A stretch of DNA of 63,552 bases, filler included, from Candidatus Hydrogenedentota bacterium (GTDB lineage: Bacteria; JBFMHD01), in assembly GCA_040752395.1 (NCBI GenBank). It is 7 parts of 7 records of this genome, joined end to end, with 100 filler letters (N's around TTAATTAATTAA, not from the genome) between each part and the next. Parts side by side here need not be neighbours in the genome. Positions count along the whole stretch, not along the records: positions 14,263 to 21,257 come from JBFMHD010000146.1; 6 more parts are not named here. One strand, written 5' to 3'. Below are positions 8,792 through 42,022 of this stretch, in pieces (within the stretch, counting starts at the first letter, position 1; every line of letters begins with the position of its first letter). The translations under genes were made by a program, and so were the position numbers. The notes below the pieces were generated by a model. The model worked only from the letters and a program-made list of their open reading frames with translations. It was not told where the DNA came from and searched no databases.

Positions 8792-9211
8792 TTAGAACTC
8801 TTTTAGGGCTTGTTCGAACAATGCTATCAGATGTTCTACCCGTTTTATGTAATTATGAGCCGTATCTTTATCATACAATTCTAATAATGGAGTAAAGTCT
8901 TCTTCATCGCCATAAAACGCTTGACTTCTTTCCTGGGATAGTTCTTTTGATAGATCAGAAATCTCATCAAGTTCTTTCTGCCAGGAAGAAGGGAGCCTGT
9001 TTTTATAGGCTCGAATAGTATCCGCGACATCATGAATTAAAGGTGGGTCTATCCCAAGTTTTCGCAGCATCCCTTTTAAGATTAGTTCTACAATTTCCTG
9101 GCACTCTCTGACAACATCATCATAAGCATCACGGCTGAATAATAATCTTACAGCTTCTATCCTGTTTTTAACTTTTCTTAAATATTCTTTTGCTAATAAT
9201 TCGCCATTCAT
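8792..9211 (-). CDS. HEPN domain protein (MNT-HEPN TA pair)
   Basis: VRECQEIVELILKG, HDV, ERSQAFYG; overlaps the upstream MNT gene. Confidence 0.85.
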   Translation of the reverse strand: MNGELLAKEYLRKVKNRIEAVRLLFSRDAYDDVVRECQEIVELILKGMLRKLGIDPPLIHDVADTIRAYKNRLPSSWQKELDEISDLSKELSQERSQAFYGDEEDFTPLLELYDKDTAHNYIKRVEHLIALFEQALKEF

Positions 9212-9681
9212 ATTACTACCCGCATACTGGTTTTATATTTATCATCGGGGATAAGTACCCAATATTCATTACCCATAGGGTCAGTCTGTTTATAACTTCC
9301 CAATTCTTTAAGTCTATGCTGAATTTTTTTTATTATTTTGCTAAAAAAGTCTTCACGGTCATAAATTATTTTAAATCCATCCAGAGCTCCTAAATAAAAT
9401 GGCTTTATACTATAAGACCTTTCAGTCGGTAATAAAATAAAAGAGGCGTATCTCATAAGTTCAGCATATTTTTTAAGATATGGTAAAAGAAATTTAAACC
9501 GTGCAGGTTTTAATACCGGGAAATTATCGGAAATTATTATGACATCAAGGTCGCTTTCTGGCTCGTTATTTCCTTTTACACGCGAGCCGATTAATACTAT
9601 ACTTTTTAAAGCATCCCCCCAATACAATTTTAAGTCTTCTTTTAATAGTATCATCTCCGAGAATAATATCTCATTCTTCAT
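9208..9681 (-). CDS. Minimal nucleotidyltransferase (MNT antitoxin)
   Basis: LIGSRVKG...ESDLDVII motif. Confidence 0.85.
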   Translation of the reverse strand: MKNEILFSEMILLKEDLKLYWGDALKSIVLIGSRVKGNNEPESDLDVIIISDNFPVLKPARFKFLLPYLKKYAELMRYASFILLPTERSYSIKPFYLGALDGFKIIYDREDFFSKIIKKIQHRLKELGSYKQTDPMGNEYWVLIPDDKYKTSMRVVI

Positions 9682-14402: not shown

Positions 14403-15607
14403 AAAAGAGAAACAATATGTTTTGCAAATGCCATTGAAGATGTAAATGCTGGCGATACCGCGTTTAGTATATGGACTGAATCACTGGTTTTCTCTACTAC
14501 AAAGTCCATCACAAGTTCTTTCCTTTGCCAGTTAAGAAGCTGAGCCCGGATACCTATCTTATCTGAGTCTACTATGTCGTTATATAACAGCTGGGGAACA
14601 AGTTTTCTTGCTGTTTCATAAACAAACTTTTTTCTGTATTTTTTAATCTCTTTAAACGCGTATTCTCTAAAAAAATTATTTAAAGATAAAAGAATAACTG
14701 AATTATAAATAATATCAAATATTTCTTTATCTATACCATCAAATAATCCGTAGTTCTCTCTTCCCAAAGCCGGGAATACAGTAGGTCCAATCTCAACTTC
14801 ATTATCGGCATCATTAGTAAAATGAACTCCTAAGAACGGATTTTTTAAATCAGGCACAGGATAGATATTACCACGAACAAGATGGCTCTTTTCTTTTATG
14901 AGTTTTTTATATGTACCTTTAAAAGGGAGAATTTTATATTCTTTAGAAAGGCCAAAACTTTGAGCGATTTTATCAGCAAAACATCCGGCAGCATTTATAA
15001 ATTTAGAAAATCGGATCTTTGCACGTGTGTTACTCCCGAGGTCAGAGACAAGAGCGGTATTACTCTCCTCAATAGTAAGAAATTTTGTATTATAAAGAAT
15101 TTTTACTTTTTTCGAAGCTACTAAATCCTGCTCCATAGCTTTTAAGACCTCAAGAGGTTTAAATACTGCGGTATCAGGTGAATACAGGGCTTTTTCGCAG
15201 GTTTTTGCGTATGGCTCTATTTTACCTAATTCTTTTTCATCGATTATATAAGCTTTTGCTCTGGCTGAATCAGCCCTTTGTTTTAAATTATAAAGTACCT
15301 CTAATTCCTCATAGCTTTTTGTGACTATAACTTTACCATTCTCTTTTAATGTTAGCCCTTTATCTTTACAAAATTCTTTCATCAATTGATTTCCAGAAAC
15401 GCAATATTTCGCCTTGAGTGTATCAGGAGAGTAGTATATTCCTGCGTGCAGTACGCCACTGTTTCTTCCGCTTGCGTGTATACCTGTAGTTGCTTCTTTT
15501 TCCAAGATAACAATATCATCAACCTCTTTTTTCAGGAGTTCACGTGCAATAGCAAGCCCGGTAATCCCTGCGCCTACAATCAAAAACTGCGATTTATCCT
15601 GTATCAT
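14399..15607 (-). CDS. lhgO: L-2-hydroxyglutarate oxidase family FAD oxidoreductase
   Basis: GAGITG, HASGRNSGVLHAGIYY, IYPVPD..PFLGVHFT, NAVSPAFTSS. Confidence 0.88.
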   Translation of the reverse strand: MIQDKSQFLIVGAGITGLAIARELLKKEVDDIVILEKEATTGIHASGRNSGVLHAGIYYSPDTLKAKYCVSGNQLMKEFCKDKGLTLKENGKVIVTKSYEELEVLYNLKQRADSARAKAYIIDEKELGKIEPYAKTCEKALYSPDTAVFKPLEVLKAMEQDLVASKKVKILYNTKFLTIEESNTALVSDLGSNTRAKIRFSKFINAAGCFADKIAQSFGLSKEYKILPFKGTYKKLIKEKSHLVRGNIYPVPDLKNPFLGVHFTNDADNEVEIGPTVFPALGRENYGLFDGIDKEIFDIIYNSVILLSLNNFFREYAFKEIKKYRKKFVYETARKLVPQLLYNDIVDSDKIGIRAQLLNWQRKELVMDFVVEKTSDSVHILNAVSPAFTSSMAFAKHIVSLL

Positions 15608-15737
15608 AATTTTATATTATGGTTTTTTATCGTAGAAGAGCAACTGTTTTTTACAAAATCTTCGGATAATAATTTTGAATTTAACATTGTGCCTTTGTGC
15701 CTTACGAACAGGGTTTTCAGAAATCTGCTAAAAAAAC

Positions 15738-15766
15738 TTGACAGATATTTTTATAAAAACTAAAAT
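15738..15766 (+). promoter_or_regulatory. Sigma70-type promoter
   Basis: TTGACA-17 nt-TAAAAT just upstream of the riboswitch. Confidence 0.75.
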
Positions 15767-15776
15767 TATTTAAAAT

Positions 15777-15990
15777 TACAGGTGAAAAGTTTAAAAGGGA
15801 ATACGGTGTAAATCCGTAGCGAACCCGTCACTGTAACCCGGCTCTTTTAATTTTTAGAAAAGAGAAACACTTTCTTTAAATTTGCCAATACACCAATTGG
15901 TGTACAGAGGAAGCTGTACGTCACTGTCTTTTGGTAAAAAAAGGTGGGAAGACAAAAGAGAGTGCTGGGAAGCCAGGAAACCTGCCTGTA
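15777..15990 (+). ncRNA. Cobalamin riboswitch
   Basis: AGGTG...AAAAGGGAATACGGTGTAAATCCGT...CCCGTCACTGTAA...CACTG...GGGAAG...AGCCAGGAAACCTGCCTGTA (B12 box), upstream of cob genes. Confidence 0.95.
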
Positions 15991-16044
15991 ATATAATAAA
16001 AACCTTAAACTCTTCGAGGATAAGAGAGCAAAGGCTATGCTGTT

Positions 16045-16080
16045 AACCGACTTTCAAAATCGAAGAGTCGGTTTTTTTAT
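16045..16080 (+). terminator. Riboswitch expression-platform intrinsic terminator
   Basis: AACCGACT...AGTCGGTT stem followed by a T tract, before cobD. Confidence 0.8.
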
Positions 16081-16106
16081 TTTAAATGTATTCCAGCGAG
16101 ACAGTT

Positions 16107-17192
16107 ATGGGTTCATTTTTTTATCATGGCGGTAATCTCAGGGAAGCAAAAGAGAGATTTAAGTTAGCAGAAAAAAAATTTATAGATTTTAGTGCTAATA
16201 TTAACCCACTTGGTTTCCCGACAAAAATAAAAACAATTATAGAGAAAAATATAAATCAGATCGCTTGTTATTCTGACCCGGAATACAGAGAATTTAAACT
16301 TACTTTAGCAGAAAAGATCAACGTTAGCCCTCATAATATTCTTGTTGGTAACGGCTCGATGGAACTAATTTTTTTAAGTATAATGTGTTTGTTACCTCAA
16401 AAGGTTCTTATCCCGATACCAACTTTTAGTGAATATGAGCGCGCAGCAAAAATGATAAATTGCGATTGTATTTTCTTAAGATGTAAACAAAGTAGAAATT
16501 TTCAAATAGACATCAATGAGATGATAAAATATCTACCACGGGTTGATTTAATTTTTCTTTGTAATCCGAATAATCCCACAGGTACATTAATACCCAAAGC
16601 CGAGATATTATATCTACTAAAAAAGTGTCTAAGATATAATGTGTTTTTGATCATAGATGAAACATTTATTAATTTCTTAACTGATGCGGATAAGGTTACA
16701 TTGATAAAAGAAGCATCAAAGAACTCTAAGCTGTTGGTAATAAGGTCATTAACAAAGATTTTTGCGATCCCTGGTTTACGTTTAGGATATATAGTTGGGA
16801 ATAAAAGGTTAATTAATAATATTAGCCGATATCAACCCACATGGTCAGTTAATACCTTTGCTCAATTAGTAGGTAAAGAAGTTTTGAATGATACAAGATT
16901 TATTAGTCAAACCTATGAACTGATAAATAAAGAGAGAGAGATACTATTTAGAAATTTAAAAGAGATAAAGGGTATAATTCCTTTTTCTTCAAAAACGAAT
17001 TTTATTTTAGCCCAATTGACAAACCCGAGAATAAATTCAAATGAGTTATATAATTTTTTAGGAAAGAATGGGATACTTATCAGGGATTGCTCAAATTTTC
17101 GCGGGTTGAACAATAGGTTTATACGTATATGCGTGCGAACGCGAAAAGAAAATTTAAAACTAATTAACAATATAAAAAAAATTTTAAGATAA
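16107..17192 (+). CDS. cobD: L-threonine-O-3-phosphate decarboxylase
   Basis: HGGN, DFSANINPLG, GNGS, CNPNNPTG, RSLTKIFAIPGLRLGY; start may instead be 16086. Confidence 0.92.
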   Translation: MGSFFYHGGNLREAKERFKLAEKKFIDFSANINPLGFPTKIKTIIEKNINQIACYSDPEYREFKLTLAEKINVSPHNILVGNGSMELIFLSIMCLLPQKVLIPIPTFSEYERAAKMINCDCIFLRCKQSRNFQIDINEMIKYLPRVDLIFLCNPNNPTGTLIPKAEILYLLKKCLRYNVFLIIDETFINFLTDADKVTLIKEASKNSKLLVIRSLTKIFAIPGLRLGYIVGNKRLINNISRYQPTWSVNTFAQLVGKEVLNDTRFISQTYELINKEREILFRNLKEIKGIIPFSSKTNFILAQLTNPRINSNELYNFLGKNGILIRDCSNFRGLNNRFIRICVRTRKENLKLINNIKKILR

Positions 17193-17207
17193 AGGAGGTA
17201 AAACGTT

Positions 17208-17342
17208 ATGAGGCAAAAGATTAAAAGGAAAAGGAGAAATTCAAAACTGGTCTCTTATCGGTTGAAATGTAAAAAAACAGCAAATGGTCTCTCACATTTT
17301 GTTATGTATGGTGATGTGGCTAAAAAAGAGACATTGTTGTAA
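17208..17342 (+). CDS. cbpA: Putative RiPP precursor peptide (CbpA-like, 44 aa; not in ORF track)
   Basis: AAGGAGG RBS; MRQKIKRKRRNSKLVSYRLKCKKTANGLSHFVMYGDVAKKETLL with a YRxxCxxxxxGLSH motif, upstream of a SPASM radical SAM gene. Confidence 0.8.
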   Translation: MRQKIKRKRRNSKLVSYRLKCKKTANGLSHFVMYGDVAKKETLL

Positions 17343-17354
17343 GTAGGGCGGCAT

Positions 17355-17490
17355 AAAAAGATTAAAAGATTGAAAGATTCAAAGGAAAGGCACAGAGGCA
17401 CAGAGGCACAGAGGCACAAAGGCAGAAAGTTAAATTAAAAATTAAAAATTAGGAGTTAGGAGTCAGAAGTCAGACTTCTTGCTTCTAATA
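17355..17490. repeat. Mosaic of short tandem repeats (AAAGATTN, GGCACAGA x3-4, AAAATTA, GGAGTTA, AGAAGTC)
   Basis: Directly visible tandem 7/8-mers shared with other intergenic sites. Confidence 0.9.
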
Positions 17491-17529
17491 TATCACCTCT
17501 AACTGAGTGATGACCCAAGGTAGATCAGA

Positions 17530-18843
17530 ATGCATACAGATAAAGGTTTAACCTGTTTTTGTAATGATGATGACTGTATATTACTTGACCCGGATAATGT
17601 ATTCTGGGCAAATATTTCAAAAGATAGCCAGAAACGTTTATTAATCCAGCAAGATGTATTAAGTACTTATGAAAGGGTGAGGGAGAGGTTAGATAAAGAG
17701 ATTAGAGATTTCAGGTTTGGTACCACGCTTGTAGCTATTTATATTGACCCTACTGATCGATGCAACTTGAATTGTCCATATTGCTATATCCCATCAAAGA
17801 TAAGAAAATATGGAGGTGAGATGACCAAAGAGCAGTTAACATATGTGCTTAATCGTATCCGGGAACATTTCAATAAATCCAGAAAAAAACCTGTGATAAT
17901 TTTTCATGCTGCTGAACCGTTATTAGTAAAAAATATTATATTTGAAGCGATAAAAGAGTACAGAAATAAATTCTATTTCGGACTACAGACCAATGCTATT
18001 CTGTTAAAAAAAGAGGATGTAGAATATTTAAAAAGGTATCGTGTAGGTGTTGGTATCTCGTTAGATTCTTTTAATCCTTCTAAAAATAATCGATTAAGAC
18101 CAGATAGCTTTAGAAAGATTGTAAATGCGATTAAATGGTTTGATGGTTATGAAGGATTAAATGTAATTACAACTATTACTAAATTTAATGTATCTGATTT
18201 ACCTTATATGGTAAAATTTTTACACAATTTAAGGGTTCCATCTGTATTGCTTAATCCCATGAGATTGACACAAAAGAATAGTTGGGGATTTAAACCTGAT
18301 GAAAAACTATTAACAAAGTATTTTATTAAAGCAGTAGATACTGCATTAGAATTATCGAAAAAATCAAATCATAGAATTATAATAGGCAATTTTGCTAATA
18401 TTATACTGGGTATCGTCTCACCTACTGCGAGGCGGCTTATGTGCGATATTTCTCCCTGTGGCGGTGGCCGATGTTTTTTAACTATAACTGCTTCGGGTGA
18501 TATGATACCCTGTGGTGAATTTATAGGGATAAAGGGATTTTCAGGTGGTAACATTTTTAAAAGCAGTATCAAGGATGCGATGCGTTCCCGGCCATTTAAG
18601 AGGGTTAGAGCAAGGATTGTAGAGAGGATAGATGTATGTAAAGAGTGTATTTTTAAGAATATATGTGGTGCACCCTGTCCGGCGGAACTCCATTCTTTAG
18701 GTAATATGTTTAAAAAGTCTGTTTTTTGTAACTTTTACAAAGAGATAATCAAATATGCTTTTGGAGTTATAGCAAAAGGGGAAGAAAAATATCTTTTGCG
18801 AGCAGATGGCTTAAAAAACCTGAAATATGAATACCGTCTGTAA
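17530..18843 (+). CDS. cbpB: Radical SAM/SPASM peptide maturase (CbpB-like)
   Basis: CNLNCPYC motif; SPASM cysteines in CDISPCGGG...PC...CKEC...CGAPCPAE...FC. Confidence 0.85.
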   Translation: MHTDKGLTCFCNDDDCILLDPDNVFWANISKDSQKRLLIQQDVLSTYERVRERLDKEIRDFRFGTTLVAIYIDPTDRCNLNCPYCYIPSKIRKYGGEMTKEQLTYVLNRIREHFNKSRKKPVIIFHAAEPLLVKNIIFEAIKEYRNKFYFGLQTNAILLKKEDVEYLKRYRVGVGISLDSFNPSKNNRLRPDSFRKIVNAIKWFDGYEGLNVITTITKFNVSDLPYMVKFLHNLRVPSVLLNPMRLTQKNSWGFKPDEKLLTKYFIKAVDTALELSKKSNHRIIIGNFANIILGIVSPTARRLMCDISPCGGGRCFLTITASGDMIPCGEFIGIKGFSGGNIFKSSIKDAMRSRPFKRVRARIVERIDVCKECIFKNICGAPCPAELHSLGNMFKKSVFCNFYKEIIKYAFGVIAKGEEKYLLRADGLKNLKYEYRL

Positions 18844-19009
18844 CCCCTCACTGAACTTAAAAACCCCATTGAAGAGCGGTGAATGAGAGTGATTTTTTAT
18901 GACAACATTAATTATCAAGGGTTATGAGATTCATCATGTTTCTTGCCCCAACACTAATTGCTTTTTTGTTATCTTGCTTCTTACTTCTAATCTATAACTG
19001 AGGGGTTAC
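18840..19009. repeat. 170-bp segment bounded by 11-bp inverted repeats (MITE-like)
   Basis: GTAACCCCTCA 18840-18850 / TGAGGGGTTAC 18999-19009. Confidence 0.5.
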
Positions 19010-19019
19010 TTTAAGGGAT

Positions 19020-19970
19020 ATGTATAGTTTGATGATAAGTTGCGGGTATATTCTGGATTTAATTTTTGGTGACCCGCAGTGGTTGCCTCATCCTGTTCGC
19101 GGTATCGGCTGGATGATAAAAAAATTAGAACCTGTTTTAAGAAAGACTATAAAGAACGAACGTGTTTCTGGTATTTTATTCGCATTTCTTGTGATAGGTA
19201 TAGTGTGGGCTATCAGTTTTATCATCATAAAACTCTGTTATTTTATTAATATATATTTAGGAACACTGATCTCTATTTTATTAATATATACCTCACTCTC
19301 AATAAAAGATTTAAAAGTAGAAAGCATCAGAGTATATGATGCTCTGATAAAAGGGGATATAGTTTTAGCACGTAAGAATTTAAGTTTGATTGTAGGACGA
19401 GATACAGAAAATTTAAATGAAAAAGAGATAATTCGAGCAACAGTAGAGACGATCGCTGAAAATATTGTTGATGCGATAATCTCACCATTATTTTACGTAT
19501 TTATAGGTGGTCCATGTTTGGCTATTATGTATAAGGCTATAAATACTTTAGATTCTATGGTTGGATATAAAAATGAAGTTTACAGAGATTTCGGGTTTGC
19601 TTCTGCAAAGATAGATGATATCTCAAATTTTATACCCGCAAGATTGTCTGCTCTATTCTTACCACTCGCAGTGTTGATAGCGGGTGGCAATAGCAAAAAT
19701 TCTTTCAGGATTGGCTGGCGTGATGGTAAAAAGAACCCAAGTCCAAATAGCGGCATACCAGAAGCTGCTCTGTCAGGTGCATTGGGAGTTCAACTCGGTG
19801 GGATTAATTTCTATAATTCTATCCCCATAGAAAAACCATTTATTGGCGATGATATTAATCCTCTAAAAGTAACACATATAAAAGAAAGTATAAAGATTGC
19901 TTATATCTGTTCTTTTTTATTTTTGATAACAGGTATTATCTGTTTCGAACTCTGGACTAATAGTCCGTAG
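19020..19970 (+). CDS. cbiB: Adenosylcobinamide-phosphate synthase
   Basis: GDPQWLPHPVR, IVGRDT, ETIAEN, YKAINTLDSMVGY, SPNSGIPEAA. Confidence 0.95.
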   Translation: MYSLMISCGYILDLIFGDPQWLPHPVRGIGWMIKKLEPVLRKTIKNERVSGILFAFLVIGIVWAISFIIIKLCYFINIYLGTLISILLIYTSLSIKDLKVESIRVYDALIKGDIVLARKNLSLIVGRDTENLNEKEIIRATVETIAENIVDAIISPLFYVFIGGPCLAIMYKAINTLDSMVGYKNEVYRDFGFASAKIDDISNFIPARLSALFLPLAVLIAGGNSKNSFRIGWRDGKKNPSPNSGIPEAALSGALGVQLGGINFYNSIPIEKPFIGDDINPLKVTHIKESIKIAYICSFLFLITGIICFELWTNSP

Positions 19971-20112
19971 CCAGTAGCCTGTCCTGATACCTCTCACTTC
20001 TTCCGTTATCTTGCTTCTTGCTTCTACTTGATATTATTAGAGTTAGAATGTTTTTCAGAGGAGGGGTTAGGAGTTAGGAGTTAGGAGTTCGTAATAATAG
20101 CTCCGAGCTCCG
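19961..20112 (+). repeat. Modular intergenic repeat copy
   Basis: TAGTCCGTAGCC..GTCCTGATAC..(TCTTGCT)n..ATTATTAGAGTT..TTTTTCAGAGGAG plus (GGAGTTA)n; contains the cbiB stop codon. Confidence 0.9.
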
Positions 20113-20114
20113 AA

Positions 20115-20531
20115 TTATTTTTCTTTGCCATATTTGTTTTTATCTTTATATAACTTTAATATTCTATTAACCAATTTCTTTGCTATTTTAAGTGAATTCA
20201 TTACCTCTTCTTTAGTGAGTTCAGATGCCACAATAAAAGGATAGCGTTCTTCTACATAGTAATCTGTTATTTTTAAACATTCTTGACGAAATTCTTCAAA
20301 AGATGGTTCATAGTCAATAATATCATTTAACAGTATTTCTAACTCGTGAATTCTTTTTAACTTCCATCCTTTTGATAAAAGATAACCTTTCAGATATTTT
20401 TCAACTGCTTGTTGAATATTGAAACCCGCGCCTTCAAGATCACCAAGGCGAAGTAAATTTTCTGCTCGTTTAATCTCTTTTGCTCCAATTCCAAACCAAT
20501 CTGCTGGATATAAAGACTCATTTTTTCTCAT
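20115..20531 (-). CDS. HEPN domain protein
   Basis: FNIQQAVEKYLKGYL, IHEL, YVEERYP. Confidence 0.9.
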   Translation of the reverse strand: MRKNESLYPADWFGIGAKEIKRAENLLRLGDLEGAGFNIQQAVEKYLKGYLLSKGWKLKRIHELEILLNDIIDYEPSFEEFRQECLKITDYYVEERYPFIVASELTKEEVMNSLKIAKKLVNRILKLYKDKNKYGKEK

Positions 20532-20853
20532 AGAGCACTTTTCCTTTAGTTAATATCTCCTCAACAAATTGATCGCCTACTCTTATTCTCTTTTCAAGTT
20601 CTTTGGGAGTAATAACAATCGGTTCAAAGGGGATACGCCGTGTTCTATCAGAAACAATTCTGCGGACGTTTACCCTGCGATCAATGGGTCTTTCTTGGGT
20701 CCTTTTGATGATAAACAAGTCTATGTCGCTATCTTTATCCGGTTCTCCATAAACATAGGATCCAAAGAGAATTATTTTTGATGGTTTGTAGGAAGATACT
20801 ATTTTTGCGACTATTTCTGAAATTAACTGCTGCAATTTTCTATTTTTGACCAT
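20518..20853 (-). CDS. Minimal nucleotidyltransferase (MNT antitoxin)
   Basis: IILFGSYVYGEPDKDSDIDLFII. Confidence 0.9.
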   Translation of the reverse strand: MVKNRKLQQLISEIVAKIVSSYKPSKIILFGSYVYGEPDKDSDIDLFIIKRTQERPIDRRVNVRRIVSDRTRRIPFEPIVITPKELEKRIRVGDQFVEEILTKGKVLYEKK

Positions 20854-21257
20854 TATCAAACCTTGAATATCGCTCCTGCATCATTTTTGAATATCTCAAC
20901 CACTTTCCAAAGTATGGTTTTGCTCCGTCAATCACTTCGACCCGCTTTATCCCTCTTGATCGCATAGTTTTGTCTCAACTTTAATTATATTTAATTTATT
21001 TTTTAATTCTAAGAAAATTTGGTTTATCATAATTGAGTAAGATAAAGAAAATAGAGTAGAAAGTCAAGAGAAAATTGAAGGAGCTTGTAATGACTCAGTT
21101 ATTGGTGCAGTAGAACTTATACTTTAGAAGCAAGAGGCAAGAAGCAAGAAGCAAGATTATGGAATCCCACTGAAGACCGAGGGAATACAGTATACTGCTT
21201 CCCTGAAACGTGAGACACTTTAAAGGGGAGGGAAAGAGGCACAAAGGCACAAAGGCA

Positions 21258-21357
21258 NNNNNNNNNNNNNNNNNNNNNNNNNNNNNNNNNNNNNNNNNNN
21301 NTTAATTAATTAANNNNNNNNNNNNNNNNNNNNNNNNNNNNNNNNNNNNNNNNNNNN
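21258..21357. other. Artificial contig linker
   Basis: N run + TTAATTAATTAA. Confidence 0.99.
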
Positions 21358-21499: not shown

Positions 21500-21573
<74 letters not shown>

Positions 21574-22622: not shown

Positions 22623-23327
22623 ATGAAAGCTGATCTTCTATCCACTCATATGACATTCGAAAATTTTGTAGTTGGTGATGGTAATAATTTTGCCTATTCT
22701 GCTGCTCTGGCCGTAGCTAATGACATCTCGTCCCAGATATATAACCCTCTTTTTATATACGCTAATCCAGGGCTTGGTAAAACCCATCTTGTTAAAGCAA
22801 TAGGTAATAAAGTATTAAAACGTAATGAATATCTTAAAGTATTTTATACTACCAGCAGACAACTTATCCAGGACTATACCACGGCTGTGAATAACAATTT
22901 ATTTGATGAATTTTATAAATTCTATGACGAGAAGGATTTACTTATATTCGATGACGTGAATGAGGACGGCTTTTTTTATATCTATGACCGGCTATCTCCT
23001 GAATGTCAGATAGTAATGACAAGCAGAAAATCGCCTGGCCAGATGCCGCATCTTGAACATAGAGCAAGAAAAATGCTGAACTGGGGACTAATAGCTGATA
23101 TGCATCCTCTTGATCGGATTTCCAGAGAAACCATCCTCCTTCGAACAGGTACCCGACTCAGAGCCCACGTTCCTATGGATATAATATATCTTATAGCTAC
23201 ACGTATAACAGATAATATTGCAAAACTTGAGGAAGCCCTGCAGCGTGTTATAGCAGTTGCATCTATATCAAACGGTAGGATAGATAAACGAACAGTACTT
23301 AAAGTTCTTAAAAACCTTGGTTATTAA
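22623..23327 (+). CDS. Stand-alone DnaA-like AAA+ domain protein (degenerate)
   Basis: TFENFVVG.GNNFA, YNPLFIY..PGLGKTHL, LIFDDV, WGL; no domains I, II or IV. Confidence 0.85.
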   Translation: MKADLLSTHMTFENFVVGDGNNFAYSAALAVANDISSQIYNPLFIYANPGLGKTHLVKAIGNKVLKRNEYLKVFYTTSRQLIQDYTTAVNNNLFDEFYKFYDEKDLLIFDDVNEDGFFYIYDRLSPECQIVMTSRKSPGQMPHLEHRARKMLNWGLIADMHPLDRISRETILLRTGTRLRAHVPMDIIYLIATRITDNIAKLEEALQRVIAVASISNGRIDKRTVLKVLKNLGY

Positions 23328-24043
23328 AGACAAAAAATAAATAAAATACACCACTCATTTATCTCACAGACTGCCCCAAGTGTATCACCTGTAATACCAC
23401 GGATCTCATATCTACAATATAATCCGAATATGAAAGTAATAATAAATGTTGCCAGTATTAAAATAATGGATTGAAAAGAAATTATACAAAATAAGAGCGG
23501 TATTAAAGCTGCAAATAAAAAAGATTTGAAATTTTTATTTTTCAAAAATTCGCTGCCAAGCCCTTGTACTTTTGCACAATTAAAAAATTGAATCAGTATG
23601 TTCATAGCAAAACGACCAAAAACAGGTGTGCTTAACAATGCAAAATAGCGATTATTTATATCTATCTTACATAGAAATAATATCTTTCCGATAATTATAA
23701 TTATTAATGCAATTACTCCCATAGTTCCGATATGCGGGTCTTTCATAATAGCAAGCTTACCTTGAGTGTCTTTAACACTTAAAAATGCATCAGCTGTATC
23801 AGCAAGACCATCCAGATGCAAACCGCGTGTTAATTTTATCCATAAACAAATACTGATAAATGATGTAATATAGATATTTTGTATCAAGATATATAAAACT
23901 TTATCAAATATAACAAGGATACCACCTAAAATTAAACCAACAGATGTAAACCAGGAAACAAGAAGAGATATTTCACCTTTAAAATTAGTTTTTAGAGGTA
24001 AAATAGTAAGAAACCTGATGCAGTAAAATAAAGAGTTCATCAT
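23324..24043 (-). CDS. cobS: Adenosylcobinamide-GDP ribazoletransferase
   Basis: FLTILP, GLHLDGLADTADA, MKDPHIG, GITGDTLGA. Confidence 0.93.
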   Translation of the reverse strand: MMNSLFYCIRFLTILPLKTNFKGEISLLVSWFTSVGLILGGILVIFDKVLYILIQNIYITSFISICLWIKLTRGLHLDGLADTADAFLSVKDTQGKLAIMKDPHIGTMGVIALIIIIIGKILFLCKIDINNRYFALLSTPVFGRFAMNILIQFFNCAKVQGLGSEFLKNKNFKSFLFAALIPLLFCIISFQSIILILATFIITFIFGLYCRYEIRGITGDTLGAVCEINEWCILFIFCL

Positions 24044-25104
24044 ATCGACCCTGCTGACTTAGAAACCGAAGCCTGTTCAAAAGTTGCCATCTCATTATAA
24101 ATTCGAACACCTGCCTCTATCATCATCATAGCAAGACAACTCCCTGTCCCTTCTCCAAGCCGTAAATTCAAATCAAGTACAGGCTCAAGACCCATAAACT
24201 CTAATGCCTCGCTCTGAGCGATTTCAGTTGAGCGATGTGAAGCAAATATATAATCTTTAACCTCTGGATTCAGGTTGTAGCCTAATAATGTACCGGCTGT
24301 TGCAATTAAACCATCAACTACACAGGGTATCCTATGTTTAGCTGAAGCAAGAACAATACCTGCGATACCGCCGATCTCAAACCCGCCAACTTTAGATAAA
24401 ACGTCAATTGCAGATGAAGAATCAGGTTTGTGTAAAGCGATACCCTTCTTTATAACCTCAATCTTTTTATTTAAGACATTATCATTAATCCCTGTACCTC
24501 TACCTGTTATTTCTGATGGTTCAATTTTCGTTATTACCGAGATGACCGCAGTCGATGGCGTGGTATTACCTATCCCCATATCACCAACACCACAAATATC
24601 AAATCCTTTTTTGTAAAAGACAGTCTCAAAAACTTCTATACCATTTATAATAGATTTCTCAGCTTGTTCTTTTGTCATTGCAGGTTCTTTAACAAAGTTT
24701 TTGGTTCCTCGGCCAACTTTTTTTATTAAAAGATCCTCGTTCTCTTCAAAAACAGCATCTACCCCCATATCAACTACAATAACAGAAGCTCCAGCAAATC
24801 TTGAAAGAACATTTACACCAGCACCTCCGCGTAAAAAATTATAAACCATCTGAGCAGTTACTTCTTTTGGGTATGCACTCACTCCTTCTTCAGTAACCCC
24901 ATGGTCACCTGCAAGCGTAAATATCACCTTTTTTTCAATCTCTGGCTTTAATCTTCCCTGGATACAAACAATCTGTCTTGCAAACTCTTCTAATCTACCC
25001 AGACTATCTTTGGGTTTAGTAAGATTATCAAGATGCTTTTGTGCCTCTTCTTTCAGAGTATAATCAGGACTTGAAATATTTTTTATATAGTCATAAAGAT
25101 CCAT
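24040..25104 (-). CDS. cobT: Nicotinate-nucleotide-DMB phosphoribosyltransferase
   Basis: LTKPKDSLGRLE, GDHGV, GDMGIGNTT, LRLGEGTG; start 25104 after AAGGAGG. Confidence 0.95.
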   Translation of the reverse strand: MDLYDYIKNISSPDYTLKEEAQKHLDNLTKPKDSLGRLEEFARQIVCIQGRLKPEIEKKVIFTLAGDHGVTEEGVSAYPKEVTAQMVYNFLRGGAGVNVLSRFAGASVIVVDMGVDAVFEENEDLLIKKVGRGTKNFVKEPAMTKEQAEKSIINGIEVFETVFYKKGFDICGVGDMGIGNTTPSTAVISVITKIEPSEITGRGTGINDNVLNKKIEVIKKGIALHKPDSSSAIDVLSKVGGFEIGGIAGIVLASAKHRIPCVVDGLIATAGTLLGYNLNPEVKDYIFASHRSTEIAQSEALEFMGLEPVLDLNLRLGEGTGSCLAMMMIEAGVRIYNEMATFEQASVSKSAGSI

Positions 25105-25256
25105 AGTAATAATCCTCCTTATCTCTCCTTGAATGTGTAATCCATAATATTTATTGTAGTGCTCCCTGTTTGTCGAGACATTTTTTAGTAAATTTTCGGC
25201 ACATTTTGACCTGACCATTCTAATCAGGGGAGCAGTATAATCCCATGTCTGCGGCA

Positions 25257-25302
25257 TAGCCTGTACCCCGAATTATTAGAGTTACAGCGTTTTTCAGAGG
25301 AG
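25257..25302 (+). repeat. 3' module of the intergenic repeat (RBS-bearing end)
   Basis: TAGCCTGTACCCCGAATTATTAGAGTTACAGCGTTTTTCAGAGGAG. Confidence 0.9.
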
Positions 25303-25309
25303 AACTGAT

Positions 25310-25560
25310 ATGACTGATAAAAAAATAAATTCAGAAGAAATAATTAATATGTTGAAAGAAAATACATATGTTCTAATAAAATATGGTGTTAAAAAAATCG
25401 GACTTTTTGGAGGATTTGTTCGGCCGAAAAGTAGAATTGATAACAAATGGCAGTTTAAGTCCATATATAGAGCCATATATTGAAAAGGATGTGAAATGGT
25501 ATGAAACAGGACTCCCCATTTCTTAAACACATTCTTGTGGTAAAATTTCTTTTCCGATTT
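25310..25560 (+). pseudogene. Internally deleted MNT gene plus HepT/DUF86 N-terminal stub
   Basis: MTDKKINSEEIINMLKEN..KYGVKKIGLFG, then frameshifted LSPYIEPYIEKDVKWYE, then MKQDSPFLKHIL from 25501. Confidence 0.75.
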
Positions 25561-25656
25561 ATTCGTGTCAGGTATAGGATAGAAAAAATAGTGGAAAAAG
25601 TCAATGGGAAGTGAGAAAAAAACTAATAACCAAGATGTATCAAAAATTTGATGGTT

Positions 25657-26181
25657 TCAAAATTCAATCCCTTTTCTACTTTTTACTCCGAGATCAAACG
25701 GATGTTTTACTTTTTTAATCTCACTTACGTAATCTGCTTTTCTAATTATTTTTTCTGTCACACCCCTGCCTGTTAAAATTAGTTCTAATTTTGTCGGCTT
25801 TATTTTTATAAGTTCTAATATTTCTTTTTCTTTTATAAACCCGTCCCGTAAAGAGATAAGTATCTCATCTAAAATAAGCATATCGTATTTATTTTTTTGA
25901 TAAATTTTTTTTATAAATTCTAAACTATGTAGACAATCTTTTAGTATCTTATCTGAACTTTTATCTTCTAAAAAATAAGTGTGTTCTTTTGCAAAACCAT
26001 AAATATCAACTTTAAGCTTCTTTAATATTTTATGTTCTCCATACCCCCATTTATCCGGGTCTTTATGAAAATAGATATAACATACTTTTAGTCCCTGGCT
26101 CCTTGCTCGGACTGCTAATCCTATAGCAGCAGTAGTTTTCCCTTTGCCATCACCTGTATAAACTTGAATTAATCCTCTCAT
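25657..26181 (-). CDS. cobO: Cob(I)yrinic acid a,c-diamide adenosyltransferase
   Basis: GLIQVYTGDGKGKTTAAIG, LILDE, ELILTGR, KHPF..GIEF. Confidence 0.93.
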   Translation of the reverse strand: MRGLIQVYTGDGKGKTTAAIGLAVRARSQGLKVCYIYFHKDPDKWGYGEHKILKKLKVDIYGFAKEHTYFLEDKSSDKILKDCLHSLEFIKKIYQKNKYDMLILDEILISLRDGFIKEKEILELIKIKPTKLELILTGRGVTEKIIRKADYVSEIKKVKHPFDLGVKSRKGIEF

Positions 26182-26223
26182 TGATAACCGAATATCTTGC
26201 TTCTTGCCTCTTGCATCTTGCTT

Positions 26224-27561
26224 CTAAACTATGCCCTGGTCAATCATTGCATCCGCAACCTTCACAAAGCCTGCTATATTAGCGCCTTTTAAGTAGTTTA
26301 TAAATCTTCCTTCTCTACCGTATAAAACACATTGTTCGTGAATCGCTCGCATAATGGTCTTTAACCTCGAGTCGACCTCTTCACGCGTCCAGTTCAAATG
26401 CAAACTGTTCTGCGACATTTCAAGCCCGCTCGTTGCAACACCGCCTGCATTCGATGCTTTGCTCGGTGCATAGAGAATCTTGTTTTCAATAAAAGTCTGC
26501 TGTGCTTCTGGTGTGCTCGGCATATTCGCACCCTCAGCAACACAAATACAACCATTCTTAATCAGTTCTTTTGCATCGTCAAAATCAAGCTCATTTTCAG
26601 TCGCATTTGGTAAAGCTATGTCGCACTTGATACTCCAGGGAGATTTATTCTCAAAATATTCGCATTTAAATCGATCTGCATATTCTTTGATCCGACCGCG
26701 TTTTACGTTTTTAAGCTCCATTACAAACTCGAGTTTTTCTCGGTTGATGCCATCAGGATCGTAAATCATGCCATTCGAGTCAGATAAAGTAACAACCTTT
26801 GCCCCAAGTTCTATACATTTCTCAACAGTGTACTGTGCAACATTACCAGAACCTGAAGTAGTAACTATTTTCCCTTCCAAAGAATCTTTTTTAGTATTAA
26901 GCATTTCTTCTACAAAATAAATAAGACCATAACCCGTTGCCTCAGGCCTTATCAAAGAACCACCCCATTTAATACCTTTACCAGTTAATACGCCGCTAAA
27001 TTCATTAACCAGTTTCTTATACTGTCCAAAAAGATAACCAATCTCACGACCACCAACACCAATATCACCAGCTGGAACATCTGTATCAGGACCTATATGT
27101 CTGAATAATTCATTCATAAAAGCCTGACAGAATTTCATCACCTCATTATCTGATTTACCTTTAGGATCAAAATCAGAACCGCCTTTACCACCACCCATTG
27201 GTATCGTAGTTAAAGCATTCTTAAAGACCTGTTCAAATGCAAGAAATTTCAAAATACTAAGATTTACGCTCGGATGGAACCGCAAACCACCTTTATACGG
27301 ACCAATTGCACTATTCATCTGTATTCGATAACCGCGGTTAACCTGTACCTCACCCTTATCATCAAGCCAGTTAACCCTGAAGATAATAACACGTTCAGGT
27401 TCAACAATACGTTCAAGTATCTTTGCTTTCTGATACATTGGATTAGCATCTACCACAGGCATAATCGAGGTTAATACTTCACAAACAGCCTGATGGAATT
27501 CAGGTTGATTTGGGTGTTTAGCCTTTAGACGTTCCATAAACTCACTCACTCTTTTTGACAT
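26224..27561 (-). CDS. gdhA: NADP-specific glutamate dehydrogenase
   Basis: GPYKGGLRFHP, GGGKGGSDFDPKGKS, DVPAGDIGVG, RPEATGYG, GSGNVA. Confidence 0.97.
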   Translation of the reverse strand: MSKRVSEFMERLKAKHPNQPEFHQAVCEVLTSIMPVVDANPMYQKAKILERIVEPERVIIFRVNWLDDKGEVQVNRGYRIQMNSAIGPYKGGLRFHPSVNLSILKFLAFEQVFKNALTTIPMGGGKGGSDFDPKGKSDNEVMKFCQAFMNELFRHIGPDTDVPAGDIGVGGREIGYLFGQYKKLVNEFSGVLTGKGIKWGGSLIRPEATGYGLIYFVEEMLNTKKDSLEGKIVTTSGSGNVAQYTVEKCIELGAKVVTLSDSNGMIYDPDGINREKLEFVMELKNVKRGRIKEYADRFKCEYFENKSPWSIKCDIALPNATENELDFDDAKELIKNGCICVAEGANMPSTPEAQQTFIENKILYAPSKASNAGGVATSGLEMSQNSLHLNWTREEVDSRLKTIMRAIHEQCVLYGREGRFINYLKGANIAGFVKVADAMIDQGIV

Positions 27562-27650
27562 AAAATTTCTCCATAAATAAAGAATAATCATTCATCTCAC
27601 TATCAAGTAATCTCGGTAAATTTAGAAAAATACCAAATATTGTCAACTTT

Positions 27651-28169
27651 TTATTTATTTTTTAATTTTAATGGGATGCCGGCTTGCATAAAAATAACCT
27701 CGTCAGACTCTCTTGCTATCAATTGATTTGCGATCCCTGTCAAATCCCTGAATCGTCGAGCTAAAAGATTATCAGGAACGATACCCATCCCTACCTCATT
27801 TGATACTATAATTGTGGTTAAATTAGATTTTAATATAGCGTCAATAAATCTTTGTATTCTTTCTTGTATCTCTTTATCATTAAGATTTTCAGCTAAAAGG
27901 TTGGATATAAATAAACCTATACAATCAATTATTACAACCTCAAATTTCCCTTTTAATGCTGGTAAAACAAGTTCGATATCTTTACCTTGCTCAATCACCT
28001 TCCAGTATTTTGGTCTTTTAAGTCTGTGAAGTTTTATTCTTTCTTTCATTTCTTCATCAGGCGAGGTAGCAGTAGCGATAAAAACAACTTTTTTCGAGAG
28101 TTTTTTTGCTATCTCGACTGCATAACTACTCTTACCACTTCGTGCCCCACCAAGAATTAGAATAATCAT
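27651..28169 (-). CDS. cobU: Adenosylcobinamide kinase/guanylyltransferase
   Basis: LILGGARSGKS, DEEMKERI..H, VSNEVGMGIVP, FRDLTG. Confidence 0.95.
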   Translation of the reverse strand: MIILILGGARSGKSSYAVEIAKKLSKKVVFIATATSPDEEMKERIKLHRLKRPKYWKVIEQGKDIELVLPALKGKFEVVIIDCIGLFISNLLAENLNDKEIQERIQRFIDAILKSNLTTIIVSNEVGMGIVPDNLLARRFRDLTGIANQLIARESDEVIFMQAGIPLKLKNK

Positions 28170-28174: not shown

Positions 28175-28333
28175 CTCCTCTGAAAAACGCTGTAACTCTA
28201 ATAATTCGGGGTACAGGCTACGGGCTACGGACTACAGCCGGCTGGAGCCCCCTATGAAAAGTCTTGAGTCTTGAGTCTTGAGTCTCGAGTCCTGTTTTGA
28301 CTCACGACTTGCGACTCTTTTCATATCATCTTT
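28175..28333 (-). repeat. Modular intergenic repeat copy providing the cobU RBS
   Basis: Reverse complement of the 32890-33002 and 35450-35738 elements; the contig ends inside it. Confidence 0.92.
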
Positions 28334-30809: not shown

Positions 30810-31200
30810 AAAGCATCAACCATCGCCGATCTTACCTGGTATGTCCGATTCAGGTTCATAGTAAATTTGATTTATCATAGTTGAGCATATAATAATGAAG
30901 AGTGTTGTAAAGAGTCAATGAGAAACTCCTTTAAAATTGCAAGAGTTAATAGACAGGCGACATTCTACGAATGTCGAATTGAAAATTGAAAATTGTAAAA
31001 TGAATGAAAAAATTACGTAGTAAGAGTTTTTAAAGCCGTAGACTGTGTTATGAACTTTTTCTTCACTTTTAACTTTTTAATTTTTCATAGAAGATTAGGA
31101 GGCACAGAGGCACAAATACAATTTGATTATTCAATATTAAATCCGAGCTAAATAAACTCTTGATAAAAGTTTAGGAATATGTATATTTTTATCAGGGAAA

Positions 31201-32799: not shown

Positions 32800-33002
32800 C
32801 AAAGGCATAAAGATTGAAAGATTGAAAGATTCAAAGATTAAAAAATTAAAAATTAGAAAACAGGAGACAGGAGACAGGAGGAGAAAGCATAAAGTATGAA
32901 AAACTAAAGATGATATGTTGGCTTCGGGCTCCAGCCGGCTGTAGTCCGTAGCCTGTAGCCTGTACCCCGAATTATTAGAGTTACAATGTTTTTCAGAGGA
33001 GA
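32800..33002 (+). repeat. Modular intergenic repeat copy providing the RBS of the Rsb phosphatase gene
   Basis: (AAAGATTN)n, (CAGGAGA)n, GGCTCCAGCCGGCTGTAGTCCGTAGCC..ATTATTAGAGTTACAATGTTTTTCAGAGGAG, then ATG 33006. Confidence 0.92.
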
Positions 33003-35240: not shown

Positions 35241-35349
35241 GTATCTACCACGTTATAGGTAAATAAGAAGTGAAAAAGAAGAAGTGAGAAATGAGAAATA
35301 AAGGATAAGAGAAAATACCTTGACTACATTAAAGACAGGTGATAGTTAT

Positions 35350-35449
35350 NNNNNNNNNNNNNNNNNNNNNNNNNNNNNNNNNNNNNNNNNNNNTTAATTA
35401 ATTAANNNNNNNNNNNNNNNNNNNNNNNNNNNNNNNNNNNNNNNNNNNN
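35350..35449. other. Artificial contig linker
   Basis: N run + TTAATTAATTAA. Confidence 0.99.
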
Positions 35450-35738
35450 CCGGTTAGGGGTCGGGAGTCGTGAGGCGCAAGTCGTGAGTCAAAACAGGTC
35501 TCGAGACTCAAGACTCAAGACTTTTCAGCAGGCTTTTGGCTTTTGGCTCCAGCCGGCTGTAGTCCGTAGCCTGTAGCCTGTCCTGATACTTCTCACTTCC
35601 CACTTCTTACTTCTTACTTTTTTCGTTATCTTGCATCTTGCATCTTGCTTCTTTCGTTATCTTTTTTTTCCGTTATCTTGCTTCTTGCCTCTTGCTTCTA
35701 CTTGATATTATTAGAGTTACAGCGTTTTTCAGAGGAGG
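35450..35738 (+). repeat. Longest modular intergenic repeat copy; provides the icd RBS
   Basis: GTCGTGAGTCAAAACAGG, (GACTCAA)n, CTTTTCA, GGCTCCAGCCGGCTG, (GTAGCCT)n, (CTTCTTA)n, (TCTTGCN)n, ATTATTAGAGTTACAGCGTTTTTCAGAGGAGG. Confidence 0.92.
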
Positions 35739-41152: not shown

Positions 41153-42022
41153 ATGGACGCTAAAGTAAAAGAACGAATGACTAATCCTATGCACAATTAT
41201 TTAAGGCCCAAAAAGAAGTTCCCTACTGTTTGGTGTGCAGGATGTGGGAACGGCATAGTACTTCAGAGTATAGTATCAGCGATTGATTCTTTAGGTTTAG
41301 ATAGAAACAAGGTAGTGCTTGTTTCAGGCATAGGGTGTTCTTCGCGTGCACCGGTGTATGTTGATTTTAATTCATTACATACCACCCATGGCCGAGCGAT
41401 CGCATTTGCTTCTGGTGTTAAGTTTGCTGACCCACAATTAAAGGTTATAGTTATAACAGGTGATGGTGATGCTGTTGCAATTGGTGGAAATCATTTTATA
41501 CATGCTTGTAGAAGAAATATGGATATCACAGCGATAGTTTTCAATAACTATATTTATGGTATGACAGGCGGTCAGGTGTCGCCGACCACACCCCAGTCTG
41601 CGTTTGCTTCAACCTCGCCACATGGTAATATTGACCAACCATTTGATATATGTGAGCTTGCGATAGGTGCAGGCGCATCGTTCGTAGCTCGAACCACTGT
41701 CGCACACCCTAATCTTTTATATCAATATATATTACAGGGGTTAAAAAATAACGGGTTCTCAGTAATAGAAGTCTTGGTTAATTGCCCTACTAACTTTGGC
41801 AGACGAAACAAACTTGGGGACGCTGTTAATATGATTAAAAGTTTGAAAGAGATGGCCATAACTATGGATTCACTTAAAAGTAAATGGATGAAAGAGCAGA
41901 ACATAGATTTGTCTGATTTAGAAAAACACATTCTGACCGGAATATTTACAGATATAAAAAAACCGCGATTTATTGAGAATTATGCCTCACTTATTAAACG
42001 ATTACAAAGATTGAAAGATTGA
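41153..42022 (+). CDS. korB: 2-oxoacid:ferredoxin oxidoreductase beta subunit
   Basis: WCAGCG, SGIGCS, HGRA, GDGD..IGGNH, YGMTGGQ. Confidence 0.93.
   Translation: MDAKVKERMTNPMHNYLRPKKKFPTVWCAGCGNGIVLQSIVSAIDSLGLDRNKVVLVSGIGCSSRAPVYVDFNSLHTTHGRAIAFASGVKFADPQLKVIVITGDGDAVAIGGNHFIHACRRNMDITAIVFNNYIYGMTGGQVSPTTPQSAFASTSPHGNIDQPFDICELAIGAGASFVARTTVAHPNLLYQYILQGLKNNGFSVIEVLVNCPTNFGRRNKLGDAVNMIKSLKEMAITMDSLKSKWMKEQNIDLSDLEKHILTGIFTDIKKPRFIENYASLIKRLQRLKD

Follow-up and report, generated by a model that had tools for sequence, protein, structure and literature searches.

The window analysed here, 63,552 nucleotides of DNA (filler included) joined from 7 parts of 7 records of a Candidatus Hydrogenedentota bacterium genome (GenBank assembly GCA_040752395.1), carries at positions 15738-19970, within the part taken from JBFMHD010000146.1, a cobalamin riboswitch followed by cobD, a gene for a 44-aa peptide (cbpA), a gene for an enzyme of the radical SAM (S-adenosylmethionine) type with a SPASM domain (cbpB), and cbiB. 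The CbpA/CbpB pair is an already known, computationally defined family named by annotation pipelines; what is new here is a second peptide subfamily (type 2), a minimal motif shared by all types, and genomic evidence on the pair's place. The elements of the unit are the following:

15738-15766 (+), sigma-70-like promoter, TTGACA-17 nt-TAAAAT (consensus match only, 11/12)
15763-16003 (+), cobalamin riboswitch aptamer RF00174 (77.3 bits, gathering score 31.5, E 2.5e-17, model positions 1-189 of 189)
16045-16083 (+), intrinsic terminator serving as expression platform (hairpin 16045-16073, then a U-rich tail)
16086-17192 (+), cobD, L-threonine-O-3-phosphate decarboxylase (TIGR01140 314.6 bits, cut-off 290.55; PF00155)
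17193-17198 (+), Shine-Dalgarno sequence AGGAGG of cbpA, by direct reading, 9 nt 5' of the ATG at 17208
17208-17342 (+), cbpA, 44-aa precursor peptide of the type 2 subfamily (homology, conservation, codon pattern)
17343-17529 (+), cbpA-cbpB spacer with 7-8-nt tandem repeats at 17356-17463
17530-18843 (+), cbpB, radical SAM/SPASM peptide maturase of 437 aa (TIGR04163, PF04055, PF13186)
19020-19970 (+), cbiB, adenosylcobinamide-phosphate synthase (TIGR00380 258.8 bits, cut-off 165.9; PF03186 342.9 bits)

The promoter, riboswitch, terminator, cobD, 44-aa open reading frame (ORF), SPASM gene and cbiB that an earlier, sequence-only reading had listed were all found where it placed them. The promoter-like site was the best of 17 in 15500-20200, a number not in excess of the shuffle mean of 20.5, so that its position is the sole support for 15738-15766; the 5' end of the riboswitch overlaps its -10 box. 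The aptamer scored above the gathering threshold of its family and has an expression platform directly 3'. The terminator hairpin (-12.1 kcal/mol, z -2.58) was equalled by 3/200 shuffles and was overlooked by a simple terminator scan because its stem is bulged; the terminator ends 2 nt 5' of the cobD ATG. Riboswitch and terminator before cobD are arranged as is common in transcriptional OFF switches. A sequence scan revealed no terminator-like site between cobD, cbpA, cbpB and cbiB, and cbiB is presumed to be the last gene of the operon.

CbpB matched TIGR04163 ('peptide-modifying radical SAM enzyme CbpB') with 489.6 bits against the equivalog cut-off of 375 (E 7.2e-147, profile positions 12-426 of 428), and contains the domains PF04055 (77.2 bits) and PF13186 (33.4 bits). 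The context was that of a TIGR04163 enzyme, with a CbpA-type peptide gene 5' and cobamide genes around the pair. Other NCBIfam models scored far under their cut-offs, namely PapB (thioether type, 111.1 bits, cut-off 340), HxsB (95.9 bits), DynA (90.6 bits), YhhB (cyclophane type, 89.1 bits, cut-off 445), anSME (TIGR03942, 87 bits, cut-off 349.45), the SCIFF maturase (thioether type, 78.2 bits, cut-off 425) and GrrM (cyclophane type, 75.6 bits, cut-off 310). A database search with CbpB yielded 2109 clusters at E <= 1e-60, the top non-self match being 69% identical; several relatives are named 'peptide-modifying radical SAM enzyme CbpB' by NCBI, and the closest ones (54-66% identity) come from metagenome-assembled genomes (MAGs) of Omnitrophota, Nitrospirota and Nitrospinota, or labelled Planctomycetia. 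The radical SAM cysteines 78, 82 and 85 (CxxxCxxC) were invariant in an alignment of 33 sequences, as were eight further ones at 305, 310, 328, 370, 373, 379, 383 and 400, which probably serve two auxiliary clusters in a full SPASM domain.

The AlphaFold model of CbpB (mean predicted local distance difference test (pLDDT) 87.4, predicted template modelling score 0.90) was compared with solved structures using VIA-align. The highest scores were obtained with anSMEcpe (Z 33.9, root-mean-square deviation (rmsd) 2.6, 342 residues aligned, model range 66-420), ChlB (Z 33.5, rmsd 2.8, 344 aligned, 63-418) and CteB (Z 32.6, rmsd 3.3, 383 aligned, 6-418), followed by TigE (Z 28.2) and SuiB (Z 24.5); PqqE reached a Z of only 19.6. 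These matches give CbpB the predicted fold of a SPASM peptide maturase. In the model a short N-terminal domain (residues 8-63; three strands with one short and one long helix) precedes the barrel and occupies the place of the peptide-binding domain of CteB. The thioether synthase CteB was also the nearest solved homologue by sequence (121.6 bits). Picking the chemistry from fold or profile matches was tried and given up, the candidates being tied: the top structural matches catalyse three different reactions, and for this reason the fold leaves the chemistry unsettled.

For the peptide, homologues of cbpA were sought upstream of cbpB in 34 loci, and were present in 32 (13/14 from a genome collection, 18/19 from a phylum survey, and the window); the survey sampled 301 genomes from the phylum to which locus L012 belongs, and 22 of these had CbpB above the cut-off. 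No homologue was found upstream of cbpB in L002, nor in L018, where only 153 nt were available before the contig end. A peptide not conserved beside homologous enzymes would, according to the sequence-only reading, have refuted it; the peptide turned out to be conserved there. A peptide search gave 207 clusters, and among the best 120 of these residues 16-36 were almost invariant: residues 17-21, 25-30 and 32-36 were identical in 120/120, and residues 16-21 and 23-36 were kept in at least 99/120, with 119-120/120 at most positions. The N-terminus is Lys/Arg-rich and variable, and residues 37-44 are semi-conserved. Among 14 distinct DNA sequences of the core, divergence was 0.070 at codon positions 1 and 2 versus 0.533 at position 3, and every one of the four Gly and six Leu codons is used in the cores. 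This pattern indicates that selection acts on the protein rather than on an RNA or DNA motif, and cbpA is a translated gene under extreme purifying selection.

A search with a profile of all CbpA types retrieved, at E <= 0.001, 165 representatives (50% identity), of which the best 150 were 29-134 aa long, matched at their C-terminal end, and held 152 copies of the motif, in which G, L and H of G-L-x-H were present in 152/152, Ser (G-L-S-H) in 144/152, Tyr or Phe after the His in 152/152, then Ile or Val in 146/152, Arg at -9 in 142/152, and a Cys at most 10 residues upstream in 151/152. The motif common to all types is written R-x2-C-x5-G-L-S-H-[YF]-[IV]. Two peptides (P0245, 76 aa; P0255, 75 aa) have the whole conserved unit twice in tandem, as would fit a recognition site within the unit. 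In an alignment of 42 peptides of all types (A2), G27, L28 and H30 were invariant, and Y17, R18, K20, C21, S29 and V32 were kept at 90% or more; the window CbpA aligned in register with canonical peptides that pass TIGR04164.

The window peptide itself does not pass that model ('modified peptide precursor CbpA'): it scored 14.8 bits against a cut-off of 35 (E 0.015), with residues 16-32 on profile positions 3-19 of 25. The CbpA/CbpB assignment, which the sequence-only reading had given, is thus upheld for the enzyme by its profile, and for the peptide by homology and not by TIGR04164. Two types can be distinguished. Type 1 enzymes score 660-700 bits with TIGR04163 and have canonical peptides (...R-K-K-C-K-A-N-G-T-G-L-S-H-Y-V-L-L-D-K-K), whereas type 2 enzymes score 460-525 bits and have peptides like the window CbpA, with an extra invariant M-Y-G-D module and, following the His, Phe in place of Tyr; this module is absent from a short form of type 2. 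All of the five type 1 peptides passed TIGR04164 (36.8-59.4 bits), versus none of the 12 of type 2, of which the 11 other than that of the window reached at most 23.7 bits. Type 2 contributes 16/152 motif copies, and its peptides are labelled 'hypothetical protein' or are unnamed in the databases, so that many genomes carry a cbpA that is unannotated or unnamed since TIGR04164 misses this subfamily. In a maximum-likelihood tree of the enzymes, calculated without L014, L028, L029 and L033 (L028, L029 and L033 duplicate L003, L014 and L012), types 1 and 2 were split at 100/100, and the short type 2 formed one clade at 100/98. Peptide type tracks enzyme clade, i.e., the two co-evolve.

Regulation by B12 was seen in other loci too: a co-directional B12 riboswitch lies upstream of the pair in 9/21 sources scanned with Rfam. 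In four loci (L041, L044, L046 and L048) cbpA is the first gene and the riboswitch precedes it by 106-177 nt. In L048 (7501-9284, genome G036) riboswitch, cbpA and cbpB form a unit of their own, cob genes being absent for about 8 kb around it; the neighbouring genes encode an ammonium transporter, a pseudouridine synthase and an ATPase of the BadF/BcrA type. The Rfam scan found no riboswitch at L045 and L049, which have no cob neighbours. A riboswitch directly before cbpA in four loci, and alone with the pair in one of these, points to B12 repression as a property of cbpAB in its own right.

The company of the pair was counted in the 34 loci with family-checked proteins (tblastn, same strand as cbpB). 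The most frequent neighbours were CobS (25), CobT (24) and CobU (21), followed by CbiB and CobC (18 each), CobD and BtuF (17 each), BtuC (15), CobQ and a Dph6-like protein (13 each), a TonB-dependent receptor (12), CbiA and CbiC (7 each), CbiD and an AsnB-like protein (6 each), and CobO and CbiM (5 each). The gene 5' of cbpA varies (cbiB, cobD, cobS, cobT, cobU, cobQ, cbiC, cbiM, an AsnB-like gene, or nothing). Placement of the pair between cobD and cbiB, as noted in the sequence-only reading, is correct for the window and does not extend beyond it, the order cobD-cbpA-cbpB-cbiB occurring in 1/34 loci. In the phylum survey CobS was found in 22/22 CbpB-positive genomes versus 97/301 overall (hypergeometric 2.5e-12, not corrected for relatedness), and in 17 of the 22 cobS lies at most 5.5 kb from cbpB on the same strand.

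Genome G001, a single contig of 1.52 Mb, has the order riboswitch-cobC-cobU-cobT-cobS-cbpA-cbpB. A search of this genome gave no match to CbiB or CbiC and no BluB above the cut-off, and its sole ThiC-family protein is ThiC (566.5 bits, cut-off 410) and not BzaB (486 bits, cut-off 700); therefore no known benzimidazole route was found there. By this gene content the pair also lives in a cobinamide salvager. It occurs as well in genomes with ring synthesis (L003, L009, L013, L014, L051-L053), and what these carrier genomes share is nucleotide-loop assembly. A link to the aminopropanol arm (cobD/cbiB) was rejected on the gene order, seen in 1/34 loci, and on G001, which has the pair and no CbiB match. 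The neighbourhoods provide evidence that the pair would belong with the nucleotide-loop and salvage genes, and not with cobD/cbiB or ring synthesis; the proposal of cobalt or corrinoid handling, or of a step in nucleotide-loop assembly, made in the sequence-only reading fits these genomic data. A search of 103 ORFs neighbouring the pair in 14 loci brought up neither a peptidase nor an exporter family at E <= 1e-12.

Three gene families in this neighbourhood are recorded as side observations. The Dph6-like protein, a PP-loop ATP pyrophosphatase (PF01902; TIGR03679 127-153 bits, under the cut-off of 197), is encoded repeatedly in operons for cobamide salvage, mostly just before btuF (e.g., L001 9967-10638, L007 8062-8754, L008 8371-9030, L011 1673-2416). 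Its gene adjoins cobS in the CbpB-negative genome G250, and among 14 control genomes the family was seen only in archaea. It is a candidate for an unrecognised cobamide-salvage enzyme, e.g., one for the re-amidation of corrinoid carboxylates; a role as a tailoring enzyme of CbpA is weakened by its place beside cobS in G250 and by a distance of 170 kb from cbpAB in G001. The AsnB-like protein consists of a synthetase (PP-loop) domain only, with a Cys-rich C-terminal tail, and is encoded directly before cbpA or after cbpB (L007 4872-5831, L008 7445-8374, L039, L043, L047, L056). In 2/4 loci in which it lies directly 5' (L007; L023/L047) its frame is open into cbpA without a stop; an AsnB-like-CbpA 'Rosetta stone' fusion was considered and judged coincidental, as cbpA keeps its own starts and none of the best 150 CbpA representatives exceeds 134 aa. 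Genes like REP-associated tyrosine transposases (NF047646 59.6-64 bits, under the cut-off of 80) lie inside cobamide operons beside the pair (L005 3554-4087, L007 7357-8001).

The CbpA-CbpB complex was predicted from two alignments with three 4Fe-4S clusters and SAM, together with three controls. The complex score was 0.86 (three runs: 0.86, 0.87, 0.85), versus 0.01 for the best control; this mark was attained by 58/80 solved complexes and 2/110 mismatched pairs, the runs agreed in at least 84% of contacts, and the pLDDT of CbpA was at least 57. The best-defined contacts of the predicted complex were those of CbpA residues 16-19 with CbpB residues 25-28 (including the invariant F25 and W26), 296-298 and 432-435, whereas CbpA residues up to 36 touch the barrel strands 120-126, 149-153, 171-175, 208-211 and 238-242, and also, close to the first Cys of the auxiliary clusters, residues 305 and 328-329. 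The model, as a prediction, supports the presumed binding of CbpA to CbpB.

Taken jointly, these data favour, with somewhat better than even confidence, an adenosylcobalamin-repressed CbpA/CbpB pair of the RiPP type (peptides made on the ribosome and modified after translation), whose product would be a cross-linked peptide that acts inside the cell in late cobamide metabolism. The pair would be expressed only when adenosylcobalamin is scarce. CbpB would capture CbpA by strand addition, residues S16-L19 (S-Y-R-L) being placed in the model between the CbpB strand 25-29, residues 296-298 and the C-terminal tail 432-435, and the invariant segment C21...G27-L28-S29-H30-F31-V32 would be fed into the barrel beside SAM. 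From the G-L-S-H-[FY]-V segment the 5'-deoxyadenosyl radical would then abstract a hydrogen, and CbpB would close one intramolecular cross-link in CbpA. The product would stay in the cell, where its role would be not at the cobD/cbiB step but in assembling the nucleotide loop or in handling salvaged corrinoid or cobalt. An intracellular, late-cobamide role is suggested because the conserved unit includes the predicted recognition strand, the N-terminus contains no conserved leader, and neither a protease nor an exporter is linked. Few pairs of a radical SAM enzyme and a peptide have a physiological setting as clear as that of CbpA/CbpB, namely B12 metabolism, and the minimal unit R-x2-C-x5-G-L-S-H-[YF]-[IV] with the predicted recognition strand offers a handle for mutation. 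The sequence-only reading called the pair biochemically uncharacterised, and no study of it was found in the literature, subscription journals and supplements aside.

Regarding the nature of the cross-link, a thioether from the near-invariant Cys21 may be favoured, with a three-residue cyclophane centred on His30 as a close second. If CbpA is modified at all, the thioether is the tentative first choice at less than even odds, with the cyclophane and any other product each only slightly behind, a division that is rough. The thioether is preferred because the Cys is nearly invariant, the nearest relatives in sequence form thioethers, and the N-terminal domain is like that of CteB; the H-[FY]-[VI] triad is invariant in CbpA.

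Known systems offer partial parallels. With canonical CbpA/CbpB (TIGR04164/TIGR04163) the window pair shares an enzyme above the equivalog cut-off, a peptide gene directly upstream in a cobamide operon and the register of the motif, and differs in its separate type 2 peptide subfamily and its own enzyme clade (100/100). The sactipeptide (thioether) system CteB/CteA (PDB 5WGG/5WHY) likewise joins a SPASM enzyme to a substrate with a Cys donor, and CteB is the nearest relative by sequence (121.6 bits), its alignment with the model covering 383 residues and taking in the N-terminal peptide-binding domain; however, identity is about 20%, the N-terminal domain of CbpB has only about 65 residues, CbpA has a single Cys, and the extra invariant Cys305 of CbpB has no counterpart aligned in CteB. 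anSMEcpe (PDB 4K36-4K39) gave the top structural score, acts on Cys or Ser of a peptide, and has an upstream Cys that aligns with C305, whereas it lacks an N-terminal peptide-binding domain (alignment from model residue 66), and the anSME profile gives CbpB 87 bits versus 349.45. The substrate motif of anSME, C/S-x-P/A-x-R, is absent from CbpA. Triceptide cyclophane synthases resemble CbpB through ChlB (Z 33.5) and through the YhhB, GrrM, FxsB and AmcB models (62-89 bits), and CbpA has the invariant aromatic-x-aliphatic triad H-[FY]-[VI]. ChlB is described as a multiple cyclophane synthase (PMC12912966). All cyclophane models are far under their cut-offs for CbpB, and triceptide precursors usually have several variable motifs behind a conserved leader, unlike the one invariant unit of CbpA that includes the predicted recognition strand. 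PqqA/PqqE and MftA/MftC are small conserved peptides beside SPASM radical SAM enzymes with a housekeeping role and an intracellular product; they differ from cbpAB in structure (PqqE Z 19.6), in their sequence motifs, and in that no PqqD/MftB-type partner or peptidase gene was found among the ORFs near cbpAB.

Several observations weigh against the preferred reading of an intracellular, cross-linked peptide, or against its thioether form. Two natural peptides (L010 and P0370) have Gly in place of the Cys. The eighth invariant Cys of CbpB, C305, aligns with the upstream Cys of anSME; in anSME this Cys fully ligates auxiliary cluster I, whereas CteB leaves the site open for the substrate Cys. 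A His-x-Val cyclophane fits those residues that alone are strictly invariant, and the fold does not tell the chemistry, as anSME (Cys/Ser oxidation), ChlB (cyclophane) and CteB (thioether) lie within about 1 Z unit. The complex score may partly reflect likeness to solved maturase-peptide complexes (CteB, SuiB, ChlB), and its calibration used alignments and ligands that differ from those of the present run. The RiPP hallmarks of a conserved leader with a cleavage site and of a protease or exporter in the cluster were not seen (variable, Lys-rich N-terminus; 103 ORFs, 14 loci), and for the intracellular location the argument would be one from missing neighbours only. Against an essential role stand 75/97 CobS-positive genomes without a CbpB match, these being incomplete MAGs, and the pair is therefore accessory. 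Finally, L045, L048 and L049 show no cob gene nearby, and in L045 and L049 no riboswitch was seen either.

Of the other explanations, a secreted corrinoid- or cobalt-scavenging peptide (a 'corrinophore'), re-imported through a TonB-dependent receptor and a BtuFCD-type transporter, would be analogous to methanobactin, a copper-binding RiPP. Its expression would be B12-repressed as observed, same-strand BtuF- and BtuC-type importer genes follow cbpB in 17/34 and 15/34 loci, a TonB-dependent receptor gene is present in 12/34 and CbiM-type cobalt uptake genes in 5/34, and a metal or corrin could plausibly be ligated by the near-invariant Cys and the invariant His. Uptake genes, however, occur in cob operons with or without cbpAB, which makes their adjacency weak evidence; neither in the window nor in L012 does a Btu or TonB receptor gene adjoin the pair, no conserved exporter, leader peptidase or signal sequence was found in the 103 ORFs of 14 loci, and an invariant block of 17-21 residues is unusual for a secreted chelator, so that this explanation is considered unlikely. 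Equally unlikely, or slightly more so, is that CbpA is a sacrificial precursor, as PqqA and MftA are, of which CbpB would start converting one or two residues to a small molecule or cofactor for cobamide assembly, e.g., a lower-ligand or linker precursor, while unlinked enzymes would finish and release it. The extreme conservation is like that of a cofactor precursor rather than of an antibiotic, the pair is tied to cobT/cobS and not to ring synthesis, and G001 has no known benzimidazole route that could be found; yet the whole 17-residue block is constrained, beyond one or two residues, no peptidase or further tailoring enzyme is consistently linked, and the missing route is not specific to carriers, as the CbpB-negative G250 is also without BluB above the cut-off. 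Purine lower ligands need no dedicated genes, which also counts against such a precursor.

A bolder reading, regarded as quite improbable, is that modified CbpA is a dedicated corrinoid-handling peptide in which the invariant His30, with Cys21, would ligate cobalt in a corrinoid that is still incomplete. CbpA would then serve as a small 'His-on' chaperone holding cobinamide for CobU, CobS and CobT or, in the boldest form, as a peptidic lower ligand onto which CobT and CobS would build the nucleotide loop; CobT reportedly accepts imidazole and histidine in vitro. Such a role would explain why the pair follows cobT/cobS in G001, where no cbiB, ring-synthesis gene or benzimidazole route was found, as well as the conservation of G-L-S-H (G-L-x-H in 152/152) and the switching-off of the pair by B12. 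If the product does bind or join a corrinoid, a peptide component would be added to a pathway thought to be fully enumerated. A product unrelated to the making or handling of B12, which would back up or replace a B12-dependent process, has a precedent in B12-independent isozymes such as metE, which are riboswitch-repressed likewise, and could account for the stand-alone cbpAB behind its own riboswitch in L048 and for L045 and L049 without cob neighbours. It is given still less credence, as 31/34 loci place the pair on the same strand among cob/btu genes and all 22 CbpB-positive genomes carry cobS, whereas a backup function would be expected also without cobamide genes, yet none was found among 204 CobS-negative genomes searched. 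That the 44-aa ORF is a chance frame, with the radical SAM enzyme acting on another substrate such as a corrinoid, is hardly conceivable: the ORF is short and does not reach the TIGR04164 cut-off, but conservation, codon pattern, the strong Shine-Dalgarno sequence, the presence in 32/34 loci and the controlled complex prediction all contradict it.

Further cobamide genes lie 3.4-8 kb downstream in the window on the opposite strand, as context outside the riboswitch unit:

23324-24043 (-), cobS (PF02654)
24040-25257 (-), cobT (PF02277)
25657-26181 (-), cobO/btuR (PF02572)
27651-28169 (-), cobU (PF02283)

A glutamate dehydrogenase gene sits within this stretch (23324-28169, minus strand). The Rfam scan found no second riboswitch in the window, and hence none for the cobS/cobT/cobO/cobU stretch.

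The spacer between cbpA and cbpB, 187 nt from the end of one gene to the start of the other, was considered as an attenuator and rejected: its fold is not significant (z -1.07), it contains no terminator-like site, and its 7-8-nt tandem repeats also occur between many other genes. Numerous intergenic regions of the window are filled with such arrays of short repeats, and particular units (TCTTGCT, CTGTAGC, AGGCACAG, AAAGATT, AGGAGTT) recur throughout the window. Arrays were seen at 17356-17463, 20009-20113, 21126-21257, 26195-26225, 28207-28291, 30977-31114, 32809-32964, 35261-35699, 42006-42215 and 50367-50554. They look like a genome-wide repeat habit, of which the cbpA-cbpB spacer is one instance.

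Two pairs of HEPN and nucleotidyltransferase genes, toxin-antitoxin-like, lie at 8792-9681 (-) and 20115-20859 (-), the second directly after cbiB. Masked bases, read as N (X in translations), at about 21258-21300 lie beside a tRNA gene at 21503-21571 (-), and a very long open frame (2-5842, minus strand, at least 1947 aa) runs off the start of the window.

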